Notes: a model not told the origin generated them from the sequence alone. A stretch of DNA of 64,000 nucleotides from Salinispira sp. (GCA_965226555.1 CBDDDG010000001.1:160001-224000), one strand, 5' to 3'. Shown: positions 5,103 through 58,474, numbered from the stretch's first letter. Translations and numbers: made by a program.

Positions 5103-5179
5103 GTAATGTTGACATTCGCCCCCCCCAATGTCGATATTATGTGCTATACTCTAAATAACATCTTAATTGGAGGTAATGT

Positions 5180-7386
5180 ATGCAGATTGTAAGCATTAAC
5201 CAAGAACCAAGAACCCTTTAACACCCTCTGTGCTGTGGGGTTTTCTCATCATGATGACATTGCTCGTCGCGGCCTGCCCAATGCCGGAACCGGAACCAAT
5301 GCCGGAACCAGTGCCCATGGACATGGATACATCTCCCTTAATAGGCGTGTGGACCGCGGATAATGAGTTTCATACCATAGAATTCACCGCGACAACGTTC
5401 ATAGACCGTGTTTCGGGTTTGACCTGTGATTACACGGATAACGGAAACTCAATTACGCTCAGTAATTGTATGGGAGTCGAAGGAGCGGAAAACCGTAATG
5501 GGGCAACGGTAGAGTATACCATTGATGGAGATACGTTAACATTGGAGGGCAATGTCTATACCCGGCAGAATTCAGATGTACCTGAACCAACCGTGCCGGG
5601 CACCATGGCTGCTCCAAGCCTTGAAGCGGGGAATGAGCAACTAAGGGCTAACTGGACTCCGCCGGAAGAAACCGGCGGCAGCGACATTACCGCGTATGAA
5701 CTTCGCCATAGCGATAACGGCGGGAGCAGCTGGTCGGAGGATATTACTACAGTCGCCGCGCCAGCCACAGAAACCATCATCACGAACCTGACAAACGGCA
5801 CCACATACGTCGCGCAGGTGCGCGCACGGAACAGCGCTGGCGCAGGCGAATGGTCGGAATCGAGCGCAGAAGCAACATCTATTGGCGTTTCCCTCGCGCC
5901 GAATGGGTTCATGCTTGCAGTGAGTATGCAAACAATTACCGCAACATGGACTGCGCCGACCAATAGTGGCGACAGCGCCATTATTCGCTATGAACTGCAA
6001 TATCGCGTAGTCGGAACACGCGCGTGGGAACCTGTCATTGCCACCGCCGATGCCGACACCCTGACTCTCCCCATCCCCAACCTGACAAAAGGTGCCGAGT
6101 ACGAGGTGCAGGTCTACGCTGTCAATGGTCAGGGCAATGGTAACCCAACGGAAATTAAGAAAATAACAATTCCGGCTACCAAACCCAGCGCGATGAATGC
6201 TCCCACGCTCACAACCGGAGACAACAATCTCACCGCAACATGGACAGCGCCCGATGATGACGGCGGCAGCGCAATTACCGCGTACCATGTGCAGTATAGT
6301 TCAGACGGCGAAAGCACTTGGACGGCGGTCACCGACACTATAAGTGGTACTGCCATAAGCCACCCCATTACGGGCCTAGTAAGCGGTACCTCCTACGATG
6401 TGCAGGTGCGCGCCGTCAACGCGGTGGACAATGGCGACTGGTCTGCATCCGCAACAGAAACAGTGCGGATTATTGGAACACAGGCTCCCTTTGGTACGGC
6501 AGCCTCCGTCATTCTTTCGGCTGCTATTAATACCCAAATTGCCGATGAGAGCCTCACCGTTACTTTGGCTACGGCTACTACCCCGGTCGCAGGGGTTACC
6601 GTTGCCCTGCCGACAGTTGATGCAAATACCGGAATTATTACGGTTACCGCAACAACAACGGCCGGAACATATGTGGTATCCGGCGCAACCGGAGGCGGAA
6701 CTGAACGGTTTTCCGAAAAGTTTTATGTTACCGTGAGGCCTCACGATGGTGATGGCAGCGCTGGCGCTGCTAATACCGATGGCGGTAACGATGAACTGGA
6801 CGCCGCGGTAGATGCGGGGAGATCAACATGGGGCAATACTGCCAATCTCAACTACATTATTACCACGGCAGTAAGGGATATGAACAATATTTTTGAGAAT
6901 GCAAGATTATTCAATGGTGATATCTCACTCTGGGATGTCAGTTCGGTAACGGATATGTCCGGGATGTTTCAAGGGTCTTCACTATCAAAAAGCCGATTCA
7001 ATGGCGACATCTCTGGCTGGGATGTCAGCTCGGTAACGAATATGACCACTATGTTCACTAACTCAGCATTCAGTAGCGATATCACCGGCTGGGATGTTAG
7101 TTCGGTAGTGGATATGTCCGGTCTGTTCAATCAAGCAGACGCATTCAATCAAAATATCTCCGGCTGGGATGTCAGCTCGGTAACGAGTATGGACTTTATG
7201 TTTTGGAATGCAGGAGTATTCAATCAAAATCTTGAGGAGTGGAAGGATCATTTGCCGCTTGATGCTTCCGGCACATATACCGGAAACAAAACAAGTATGT
7301 TTGTGGGTTCCGGCTTGGATTCGGGTGATACAACGGATCCGGAGACTGCTGTGACCCAACCGAAGTATCCATCATGGTATTGGTAG
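5180..7386 (+). CDS. FN3 x3 + DUF285/BspA-type repeat lipoprotein, 5' end frameshifted by (AACCAAG)n
   Basis: RBS GGAGGT 5169-5174 and ATG 5180 are out of frame with the 718-aa ORF at 5230; lipobox LVAAC; FN3 motifs; [16 protein letters not shown] repeats. Confidence 0.85.
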
Positions 7387-7430
7387 TTTCATAGCCCGCA
7401 GGAGCTATTGAAACGCTGCAACTCAACTCA

Positions 7431-7472
7431 GGCAGGCGCGGGGCTGGTCGGCGCTCCGTGCCTGCCTTTTTT
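7431..7472 (+). terminator. Rho-independent terminator
   Basis: GGCAGGCGCGG...CCGTGCCTGCC followed by T-run; homologous hairpin at ~27502-27536 on the minus strand. Confidence 0.7.
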
Positions 7473-7650
7473 CGATAAGACGGCTGCTCGGCGTACGCTT
7501 GGGCTGGTCAGAGGCCTGCGCCTCCTGGGCTGGTCGGCGTTGCAGGCCTGTTCGCCCATGCGACTGGATCAGGCTAATATCCCAAAATAATAGAAACTTT
7601 TTGAAAAAATTTCCCATATTCACCGTTTATATTTTACCCGTCTATATAGT

Positions 7651-55746: not shown

Positions 55747-56090
55747 ATGGGCTGAAACTCATAAGTTCCTGTTTGCCGATGCGGAATCCATACATCAACT
55801 GCTGCAATTTGTTGATGATGACTGGATACGATATGTTCGCCCTGAGAACATTACGATTGTGAGCAACGAATTCATCGAACGGGAGCTCGGAGGCAAGAAG
55901 CTGACGAAGCTCATGCGCAAAATATCGGATATCGTTGCGAAAATTTCCTTCCGCTACGGGAAGGAAGAGAAAACCGTCTATATCATTCTGGAACATCAAT
56001 CGACTGTCGATTATTCCATGCGCAGGCGCCTATTCTTTTTGAACATTCTCCAGCATGACACTGGCGAAAAGGTGAAGGAATCCTTGCTCA
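55747..56090 (+). pseudogene. Rpn fragment (close copy of 1129-2013 with a larger deletion), truncated at a REP
   Basis: ETHKFLFADAESI...EHQSTVDYSM...LNILQHDTGEKVKESL then REP ~56082-56132. Confidence 0.9.
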
Positions 56091-56136
56091 TGGAAATTGT
56101 GCAAGCGCAATTTTCCAATGCAAAAGTTTCTATGAA

Positions 56137-56964
56137 TTAAAATGTCTGCGGTTCAAAGTCTTCGGCGTTGATAATGGAGGCGCTGGAACCCGTGGCTTTA
56201 ATGGCAAAGAGCTTCTTTTTTTGAGCGTATTTATCGGCCGATCCAACAACATTTATGTAGGCAACACCCCCGTAAATAATATCGTTTTGAAAGCGGGGCA
56301 TGGCTGTTCGAAATAGTTTCATGCTCTTGAGAAAATGATCCACATCTTCTACCCTGAGAGTGGTTTTGACTTCAATTACCACCGTTTCATTGCCGTTGCA
56401 GGCAATGAGATCAAACTCGGCAAGCGGTTTTCCCGGAACTTCTATATATTCTCTTCTAACCAAAGTTTTGTCTACGGTAATTCCTCTCATCTTGAGCAAC
56501 TTTACCAAGTCGCCCTCCACCAAGCTCTCAATCAGCTTGCCCCACTGGGAGGTAAAGAGTTCATCGAGCTTTTTTAGCCTGCGGTCGGTTTCCTTCTCTC
56601 GACGCCGAGACTCCAGTCGAGACTCCAGTCGGGACTCTTCCATTCGGCGGTCGGTTTCCTGCATTTGGCGGTCGGTTTCCTGCATTCGACGGTCGGTTTC
56701 CTTCATTTGGCGGTCGGTTTCCTTCATTTGGCGGTCGGTTTCCTTCATTTGGCGGTCGGTTTCCTTCATTTGGCGGTCGGTTTCCTTCATTTGGCGGTCA
56801 ATTTCCTTCCCTCGACGCTCAGCCTCCTTCTCTCGACGCTGAGACTCCAGTCGGGACTCTTCCATTCGACGGTCAATTTCCTTCCCTCGACGCTCAGCCT
56901 CCTTTTGGGCCTTTGCTGTTTCTGCCATCATGTCTTTAATTTCTTGTACGGTTAGTTCTGCCAT
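56137..56964 (-). CDS. Coiled-coil repeat + PD-(D/E)XK-like (DUF3782-type) protein
   Basis: (ETDRQMK)n 21-bp repeats; WGKLIESLV, EFDLIA.NG..VVIEVKTTL; RBS GAGGAG. Confidence 0.8.
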   Translation of the reverse strand: MAELTVQEIKDMMAETAKAQKEAERRGKEIDRRMEESRLESQRREKEAERRGKEIDRQMKETDRQMKETDRQMKETDRQMKETDRQMKETDRRMQETDRQMQETDRRMEESRLESRLESRRREKETDRRLKKLDELFTSQWGKLIESLVEGDLVKLLKMRGITVDKTLVRREYIEVPGKPLAEFDLIACNGNETVVIEVKTTLRVEDVDHFLKSMKLFRTAMPRFQNDIIYGGVAYINVVGSADKYAQKKKLFAIKATGSSASIINAEDFEPQTF

Positions 56965-57101
56965 TGTCTGTCTCCTCTCATGTATAATAGCCTTTTCCGG
57001 TACTGAAATCAACTGGCAGACATTCTGCCGAAAACCCTGCCAAAGCCGCCGACCAGCCGGCGCGCTCACTCATGTACCGCGCCGGCGTCTACAGCGTGCA
57101 G

Positions 57102-58474
57102 TTATGGAATAGTAAGCGTATTAGATGTTTCCGACCACTCCCCATAACCCGCAGCGTTCTTTGCGCGTATCTGTGCTTTGTATGTGTTGCCTGACGGCAC
57201 ATTAGCTATGCTGTGGGTAAATTTATTAATGGAGAAATCATTACTAGCCTCTACCCACGCTCCCTCATTTATACTAACCCGTAAATGATACGCGGTAAGT
57301 GCGCTGCCGCCGTTGTCGGTCGGCGCAGTCCATGTAATAGCAAAGCGTCCTTGAAGACCCACAGTTAATGTAAGTGTTGGAGGATCGGGCTTGTTGGGAA
57401 CAACATCAGCAGTGGTTACCGAGGCAGAAGGAGTCGACTTCAGCCACGCGCCATCGCCCTCCGCGTTCTGTGCGCGAACCCATACTTCCACATTATACGC
57501 GGTATTGTTTGCCAGCGCGGTACTGTCTTTCAATGCCGTAATGCGGTAGCTTGTATTACTTGTATCAGTAGTAGTTTCGGTCTGCCAGTCGCCCTCTGCC
57601 AGAGCTGCTTCGGATACGCGAAACCGCAGGTCATACCCGGTAATAGCACTGCCGCCGTTGTCGGCCGGCGCTGTCCATGCGGCTGTAATAGATTGCTGCC
57701 CTGATACGAGCGTCAGACCGGTTGGAACGGCAGGAGGCCCAATGGGGGTTGCGGTGCTGGTCGCTGGGTTACCATTGCCCTGACCATTGACAGCGTAGAC
57801 CCGCACCTCGTACGCGGTGCCGTTTTCCAGGCCCGTGATGGTATGACTGGTGTTTGTGTCAGGGGAAATTGGCATTGTCCATGTTCCGCCGACTTCGCGA
57901 TGGTGTAGTTTATACCCCGTAATATCAGGGTAATCTCCCGCCTCAGGCGCAGCCCATGTTGCGGTAATTGACGTATCTCCCGCTGTGAGCATAAACGCAG
58001 TCGGTTCCGTGGGAACGGCGGCAATAGGTGTTGCTTCTGCGCTCGATTCCGACCATTCGCCTGCACCCGCGCTGTTCCGTGCGCGCACCTGCGCGACGTA
58101 GGGGGTGCTGTTTGTCAGCCCCTCAATGTCAGTGCTTACGGCTGGCGCGTCGGCTGTAGTAATATCCTCCGACCAGTTGCTCCCGCCGTCATCGCTATGG
58201 CGAAGTTCATACGCGGTAATTTCGCTGCCGCCGCTTTTTTCCGGCGGAATCCAGTTAGCCCTTAGTTGACCATTCCCCGCTTCAAGGCTTGGAGCGTCCA
58301 TGGTGCCCGGCAGCATTGGATCGGGTTCCGTCATTGGATCGGGTTTCGGGGTTGGTTCAGTCATTGGATCGGGGTCCATGTCCATCACTGAACATCCGGC
58401 AAGCAGCGCAATGAACATTGCGCATAATATGAAGAGGGTTACCCCCCCCCACTTTTCAATAACGTAGTTCGCAT
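57102..58474 (-). CDS. FN3 x4 lipoprotein, 5' frameshift at G9 tract
   Basis: RBS GAGGT + ATG 58474 reads MRTTLLKSGGG*; G10 gives ...GGGVTLFILCAMFIALLAGC. Confidence 0.85.

Follow-up and report, generated by a model that had tools for sequence, protein, structure and literature searches.

The opa genes of Neisseria form a family of about 11 complete copies, with a CTCTT repeat in the region coding for the signal peptide (PMC4534519). Likewise, in P48-like of Mycoplasma agalactiae (MAGa1620, with a G10 run) and in P68 of M. bovis (G8-10), a poly-G tract lies between the start codon and the signal peptide or lipobox (PMC2824730). Here we describe comparably placed repeats in a stretch of 64,000 nucleotides (nt) from Salinispira sp. 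(GCA_965226555.1, CBDDDG010000001.1:160001-224000; hereafter the window), in which three predicted surface lipoprotein genes, with start codons at positions 5180 (site 1, plus strand), 43373 (site 2, minus strand) and 58474 (site 3, minus strand), each have a different repeat in the leader, and in the genome from which it comes. These leader repeats most likely represent slipped-strand translational phase variation operating across about 150 predicted surface lipoproteins. The mechanism is a textbook one and the lineage is new to it; the system is notable for its scale and for how many unrelated repeat units occur at one position.

At all three sites an ATG led by a Shine-Dalgarno (SD) sequence is out of frame with the lipoprotein coding sequence that follows it, as an earlier reading of the sequence (the original prediction) had claimed. 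The distance from the ATG to the codon of the lipobox cysteine is 95, 140 and 80 nt at sites 1, 2 and 3, in each case 2 modulo 3, and the frames opened by these ATGs stop after 13, 20 and 11 codons. The offset lies in a tandem repeat between the ATG and the hydrophobic stretch, namely AACCAAG in 2.6 copies, a 13-bp unit in 2.6 copies and G9, and the gain of one unit restores the frame at all three, giving leaders of 102, 153 and 81 nt. The cysteine follows the hydrophobic stretch in the motifs LLVAAC, LTFSAC and LLAGC, by which a pattern scan marks the products as predicted lipoproteins. That each leader precedes a large lipoprotein open reading frame (ORF) held for site 1 (703 codons) and site 3 (430 codons); at site 2 the frame continues for 117 codons past the cysteine and then runs into an insertion sequence (IS), IS1182. 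It was also expected that gene callers would hide such leaders, and indeed the database proteins for the genes of sites 1 and 3 (P0003 and P0007) begin past the lipobox, so that the export signal is lost from the records.

The three genes differ in domain type, with FN3 and DUF285 at site 1, a GY[N/D]xxG-repeat/propeller type at site 2 and FN3 only at site 3. Above a cut-off of 25 bits, the model PF03382 matches the genes at 5180 (150.5 bits), 29067 (117.7 bits), 43552 (418.8 bits) and 53717 (409 bits), with no match in those at 58474, 43373 and 2534; of the two models PF03382 and PF00041, the gene at 58474 matches PF00041 only. The Mbov_0838 PARCEL lipoprotein model (NF045896) scored 87.7 and 256.9 bits, below its curated cut-off of 500. 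Lipidation, surface exposure and adhesion are spoken of here as predictions from the domains.

The original prediction had proposed a genome-wide scan of lipoprotein leaders, which was carried out on the assembly of this genome (G000; labels such as C2+36606 give contig, strand and position therein). The assembly spans 2.98 Mb in 26 contigs, at 93.5% completeness and 6.67% contamination, its RadA shares 61% identity with the RadA of an uncultured Salinispira sp., and the closest outside proteins carry the name Salinispira sp. A lipobox scan combined with an all-against-all comparison yielded one linked group of 155 sites, or 154 genes after removal of one double count, on 22 contigs and of three types: FN3/DUF285, FN3-only and GY[N/D]xxG-repeat/propeller. 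A strong in-frame SD and ATG of their own are seen in 102 of the 154, and in the other 52 the start was judged by eye. Counting as repeat-bearing any leader with a G or C run of at least 7, or with an exact non-triplet repeat of at least 16 nt, in any frame, we found 43 such leaders, 30 of them out of frame and 13 in frame. Poly-G leaders account for 32, in four leader classes (8 in frame, 24 out), and the remaining 11 (5 in frame, 6 out) comprise five 13-mers, C12, ACAAC x9.8, ATTCCACC x4.5, GGACACA x30.3 and, twice, AACCAAG. Among the 111 leaders with no such repeat, two are frameshifted and three have lost the start. An out-of-frame leader does not go with a more damaged gene body: a broken body was found in 2/30 out-of-frame genes, 1/13 in-frame genes and 7/108 other genes.

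Long runs and non-triplet repeats are concentrated at these leaders. For 27 of the 79 G runs of at least 8 in the genome, the distance from the end of the run to a lipobox cysteine downstream is exactly 47 or 54 nt. Lipoprotein or FN3 genes of this kind (one being a decayed copy) contain, or have within about 330 nt on their upstream side, all 31 G/C runs of at least 10, while no A/T run longer than 9 occurs anywhere in G000. The 150-nt zones before lipoboxes, about 1.4% of the genome, hold 9 of the 36 exact non-triplet tandem repeats, against only 2 of the 153 whose unit is a multiple of three; four of the 36 sit in a microsatellite-rich end of contig C23 that is maybe foreign. Its (CA)38 and several tetranucleotide microsatellites (C23:65-2104) set it apart from the rest of G000, and it may be DNA of foreign origin in the bin.

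The tracts also vary in length between sister copies. In 11 of 14 pairs of poly-G leaders whose 80 flanking nt show no more than 4 mismatches, the G count differs (range 7 to 19), one close pair having G19 and G9 with 2 mismatches. At the 13-bp position, sister genes have approximately 1, 1, 2.6, 5.8, 6.3, 7.6 or 12.2 units, or a C12 run instead, and the copy with 7.6 units shares its unit with site 2. The tracts thus change faster than their flanks over evolutionary time, the comparison being between paralogues and not alleles. The ON/OFF contingency system that had been proposed is supported by the scan, the intact bodies and the differing tract lengths at the level of the system; the part that falls is the gene at 43373, which cannot be turned on by its repeat because IS1182 sits inside it.

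In the mechanism that we favor, replication slippage would add or remove a unit often and reversibly, and the reading frame would be set by the length of the repeat that separates start codon and export signal. A gene in frame would be made with a full signal peptide, exported and lipidated, whereas one out of frame would give only a peptide of 11-20 residues. The subset of the repertoire on display, roughly a third of the switchable genes, would then differ from one cell lineage to the next, and exchange of leaders between gene bodies by recombination would spread the switches. Consistent with such exchange, an identical domain is found after the site 1 leader and after a site 3-type leader, and P0068 combines a leader of the 96-nt type (see below) with a body 82% similar to that of a G000 poly-G gene; leader modules thus appear to move between gene bodies.

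Several observations weigh against a repertoire of working switches. The share of in-frame genes (13/43) agrees with one in three (binomial p 0.75), but paralogues are kin, so that such counts are not independent and p-values overstate; moreover, three in-frame leaders with A7-A8 runs were left out of the repeat count, and adding them makes the out-of-frame share 30/46. No orthologous locus with another tract length was identified among contigs of other sequencing runs and relatives' proteins. In one sample (runs X2 and X3), contigs do show the 58474-type leader in frame with G10, a tract length that G000 lacks; the body that follows is missing from G000 as well, and the contigs therefore represent a sister gene and not site 3. 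At site 2 the gene is split by IS1182, and with that it is no otherwise intact gene. The remaining points concern site 1. This gene and its twin C21+232260, both with two units, have 95-nt leaders, whereas eight in-frame relatives, four in G000 and P0002, P0068, P0080 and P0082 from other assemblies, have leaders of 96 nt; no three-unit AACCAAG copy was seen among the two-unit copies and these eight relatives; the twin is broken in its body as well; and an in-frame GTG lacking an SD lies 8 nt past the site 1 stop, from which a signal of 15 residues would remain.

The three sites consequently differ in how firmly they can be called. A strong case can be made for two of them, the G9 site and the 13-bp unit. 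The G9 run at 58474 is very likely a switch of this kind; the exact site 3 leader occurs four times in G000, with G9, G9, G11 and G12, every copy being out of frame. Contigs of other runs (four runs compared) show one and three additional C at this G run, which are not assignable to site 3 because five G000 genes share the leader, and one X4 piece places 84 letters over 85 reference letters at site 3, with a gap somewhere along them. The 13-bp unit at 43373 is, with similar confidence, a slipping repeat, although the gene behind it is inactivated by IS1182 in this genome whatever its unit number. The case for the 7-bp repeat is weak: there being no copy with another unit number, and the leader being one base short of 96 nt, its role as a switch is uncertain and we regard it as an even bet. 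The perfect unit AACCAAG is a hybrid of two imperfect units, AACCAAA and AAACAAG, present in the in-frame sister C2+36606, a pattern that suggests slippage by 7 bp in the past, with contraction then expansion. Upstream, the C8 run in the promoter spacer is C6 in the paralogues C2+64010 and C21+232096, with flanks otherwise identical, and it may possibly be a second, transcriptional switch. The paralogue at C2:64010-66420 (L007) has lost its ribosome-binding site and ATG by deletion, and its body of 764 codons is still open.

The explanation that survives best beside switching, although we consider it improbable for the family as a whole, is decay of a redundant family, with the repeats acting as mutation hotspots and the out-of-frame copies being young pseudogenes or silent recombination donors. 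Ten members are broken by IS or body frameshift, the site 2 gene and the site 1 twin among them, three members have lost the start, the bodies are mosaic, and G000, on this reading a genome prone to small duplications, has 153 exact triplet-multiple tandem repeats; for site 1 taken alone, decay is the likeliest reading. Against it, 28 of the 30 out-of-frame genes lack a second lesion, and the ratio of non-synonymous to synonymous differences (pN/pS) in similar blocks is 0.53 in 30 pairs with one out-of-frame gene, 0.53 in 53 other pairs and 0.56 in 11 pairs of two out-of-frame genes, like the rest of the family, even if between mosaic paralogues this is a blunt test of recent inactivation and to that extent tells against switching too. 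Frameshifts gather at the repeats (30/43 versus 2/111), long G/C runs occur only at these genes, and it is the non-triplet and not the triplet-multiple repeats that are enriched in leaders. MutS (853 codons) and MutL (596 codons) are uninterrupted, a further point against decay; it also rules out a loss of mismatch repair as the cause.

It is less probable still that the genes are made anyway, from downstream or tract-internal starts, by re-initiation or by ribosomal slippage on the G run, with the repeats tuning the amount or doing nothing. The GTG after the site 1 stop would serve this, gene callers use ATGs at tract starts, and the ATG that arises where the run begins is in frame in 5/7 copies of the ATGTTTAATC leader class (G7, G10 three times, G19). 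Furthermore, the P48-like protein of M. agalactiae was detected despite an out-of-frame G10, riboshifting being one possibility named (PMC2824730). However, the alternative starts have no SD in the preceding 14 nt and their signals lack a basic n-region, the next in-frame starts at sites 2 and 3 would leave only 6-8 residues before the cysteine, three of the five in-frame copies of the ATGTTTAATC class are near-identical duplicates, and in the larger TACAGTT class an internal TTG is in frame in 4/10 copies, which is the chance expectation.

It is very improbable that the frameshifts arose as errors in the assembly consensus at repeats. Some sequencing methods do make errors in long G runs, and in an assembly of 26 contigs with 6.67% contamination the length of the longest runs could be off by single bases; whole units of 7, 8 or 13 bp, in contrast, are not typical consensus errors. 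Nor are other coding homopolymers frameshifted above background: outside the family leaders, 115 A/T runs of 8 are read through and 4 are shift-like, compared with 2341 and 84 at random places, and G/C runs of 7-9 elsewhere give 93 and 5, with a higher share at A/T runs of 7 (443 and 40), many of them at gene junctions by eye. An independent assembly has the same out-of-frame leader, since P0026, from another assembly under the name Salinispira sp., begins MLPRRQNYENYVIQRGGVTLF, which is the out-of-frame reading of the SD-ATG-G-run leader; the off state therefore occurs outside this assembly. Finally, antigenic variation of the vlsE, tprK or vpma type, in which one expression site is fed by promoter-less or start-less cassettes, was rejected, as the members lie on 22 contigs, 102/154 have their own SD and ATG, and only three lack a start.

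Within the reading of the leader repeats as slipped-strand switches, we tentatively consider that switches have been born repeatedly in the first codons, the unrelated units (G, C, one of 5 bp, two of 7 bp, one of 8 bp and three 13-bp variants) having arisen separately and being passed on as modules. Equally tentatively, every stage might be present in this one genome, from birth out of an imperfect repeat (5180) and growth (G19, the 7-mer x30) to, in what is again a speculative ordering, locking by interruption (the GGGGAGGG leaders) and loss by IS insertion (43373). If true, about 50 independent switches in an uncultured, possibly invertebrate-associated spirochete could build a combinatorial coat larger than that of the 11-gene opa family, and the pressure behind it would be phage or innate recognition rather than antibodies. 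Having so many unrelated units at a single position, the family is well suited as a natural test of how contingency repeats originate and persist.

Compared with the described systems, the family is like opa in having multi-copy complete genes, a non-triplet repeat in the region coding for the signal peptide and recombination between copies (PMC4534519). It differs from opa in its 43 leader-repeat genes, with G, C and 5-, 7-, 8- and 13-bp units in place of about 11 copies and CTCTT only; also, the opa proteins are outer-membrane adhesins with proven switching, while ours are predicted lipoproteins whose switching we infer from sequence. It shares with P48-like and P68 the poly-G leader, missed by annotation, whose length differs by strain in the mycoplasma genes (PMC2824730); those are a few genes of a Mollicute, whereas here 32 poly-G leaders in four classes occur in one spirochete family. 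A similar design is found in M. agalactiae, in the poly-G DUF285/PARCEL lipoproteins MAG1330 and MAG3260, and in the contingency-locus PARCEL genes of M. capricolum (PMC2996958); in our family, by contrast, DUF285 comes with FN3 stalks, and the system extends to genes of the FN3-only and propeller types. Among spirochetes, tprL and tp0126 of Treponema pallidum provide a precedent for poly-G phase variation of envelope proteins; their tracts act on the promoter and ours lie in the coding leader (PMC7864442), the C8 run before 5180 being a candidate for the promoter type, as in T. pallidum. A literature search that left most subscription journals and all supplements outside its coverage found no paper on repeat-switched lipoproteins in Salinispira-like spirochetes. 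What emerges is a large repertoire of likely switchable surface lipoproteins, hidden by annotation, in an uncultured Salinispira-like spirochete.

The leader design was not found in the limited set of other genomes that we sampled. The site 1 protein has a match in 5 of 30 relatives, always to the DUF285 part, and DUF285 is present in 56 of 401 genomes of the phylum, G000 included. A G run in a lipoprotein leader outside G000 was seen in none of 89 loci, a small sample that includes 29 DUF285 loci of other genomes and 30 G9 loci, the latter being 30 of many listed for 13 genomes. In another spirochete (G222), L060:1502 and 2381 carry G12 and G10 at similar places in neighboring similar coding stretches, which are not lipoprotein leaders. 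A search of JGI metagenomes gave 0 matches to a leader pattern and three distant FN3 loci, all six protein clusters that were looked up have one member, and a search of 50% clusters returned giant FN3 and DUF285 repeat proteins, uninformative on leaders. No duplicated haplotypes appeared in a self-comparison of G000, with 8 matches of at least 2.2 kb, the longest 6.2 kb. Metagenome-assembled genomes classified as Salinispira are symbionts of latrunculid sponges, in an article whose main text does not contain the words lipoprotein or phase variation (PMC12478362). For G000 itself, six sequencing runs are listed, all of them contigs; one is a sponge-metagenome run whose share of 0.07 is no evidence of habitat.

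Table 1. Features of the three sites and related genes in the window, with runs elsewhere in the genome
Feature	Position	Strand	Remarks
Site 1: promoter-like site TTGACA-18-GATATT	5109..5138	+	spacer holds C8 run 5119-5126
Site 1: ribosome-binding site GGAGGT and ATG (5180)	5169..5182	+	
Site 1: repeat AACCAAG x2.6	5198..5215	+	ATG frame stops at TAA 5219-5221
Site 1: predicted mature lipoprotein, 703 codons from lipobox Cys	5275..7386	+	three FN3 stretches and DUF285, uninterrupted
Site 2: ribosome-binding site AAGGAG and ATG (43373)	43371..43386	-	
Site 2: 13-bp unit ACCCGAGCCGGAC x2.6	43320..43353	-	
Site 2: 5' part of predicted mature lipoprotein	42938..43233	-	Cys at 43233; cut by IS
Site 2: IS1182 inside the gene	41226..42937	-	TTAA duplicated at both ends; NF033551 319.6 bits, cut-off 270
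Site 2: 3' part of gene beyond IS	40621..41225	-	open for about 200 codons, end like that of paralogues
Site 3: ribosome-binding site GAGGT and ATG (58474)	58472..58485	-	
Site 3: G9 run directly before hydrophobic stretch of signal peptide	58442..58450	-	
Site 3: predicted mature lipoprotein, 430 codons from Cys	57102..58394	-	four FN3 stretches, uninterrupted
In-frame relative of site 2, no leader repeat	2534..3844	+	GY[N/D]xxG repeats and propeller-like part
In-frame FN3/DUF285 lipoprotein gene	27580..29067	-	IS1182 ending 38 bp upstream
IS1182 copy upstream of 29067	29106..30830	-	CTAT duplicated at both ends
In-frame DUF285 lipoprotein gene	43540..44958	+	different leader, no repeat
FN3/DUF285 gene	53717..55612	+	hydrophobic N-terminus without lipobox
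Post-lipobox runs	G000 C10:334886, C10:557174, C12:169433, C14:100321, C22:46533, C2:10904, C14:167716, C21:318653		

The claims made for the other family members in the window also stood (Table 1). An IS1182 element ends 38 bp upstream of the ATG at 29067, the gene at 53717 has an altered N-terminus, membrane-anchor-like and without a lipobox, that is joined to the FN3 start typical of the family, and the genes at 2534 and 43552 are intact, in frame and uninterrupted. The IS1182 elements have the ends GAGCCTGTCG and CGACAGGCTC as terminal inverted repeats, with TTAA and CTAT as target duplications. There are about 10 full copies in G000, one of which (C10:549105-550828) splits another propeller-type lipoprotein (C10-551067), and a 116-bp end fragment lies at 36432-36547 of the window.

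Repeats of similar kinds occur at other places in lipoprotein genes of G000. Eight G/C runs of 9-21 stand just after the lipobox, a second candidate position for such a switch, four in frame and four out: G9 and G21 are in frame and G10, G11 and G16 out, whereas C20 and one C11 are in frame and another C11 out. At C10:346959-347170, a propeller-type lipoprotein has an in-frame GGACACA x30.3 that begins within its start codon. Three related genes (C10:51151, C22:279233 and C26:7853) have a G10 of equal length within an FN3 domain, all in frame.

The window holds several further genes. Directly after the site 3 gene, an ORF on the minus strand (56137-57069) contains a 21-bp unit x8 (56641-56809) and has no Pfam or NCBIfam match; an Rfam scan of the 64-kb window gave 0 matches. 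An RHS/YD-repeat protein of 2107 amino acids with DUF6531 is encoded at 46468-52791 (minus strand), and the RHS/YD-repeat stretch is 98.4% identical over 6.2 kb to C16:57443-63651 of G000. A WD40 protein at 11044-12486 (minus strand) consists of 10.6 copies of a 126-bp unit with 96% identity. Two YhgA-like (Transposase_31) genes lie at 958-2013 and 25905-27053, and three N6/N4 DNA methylase genes are present at 14094, 36737 and 44975, with a T5orf172 domain in two of them.

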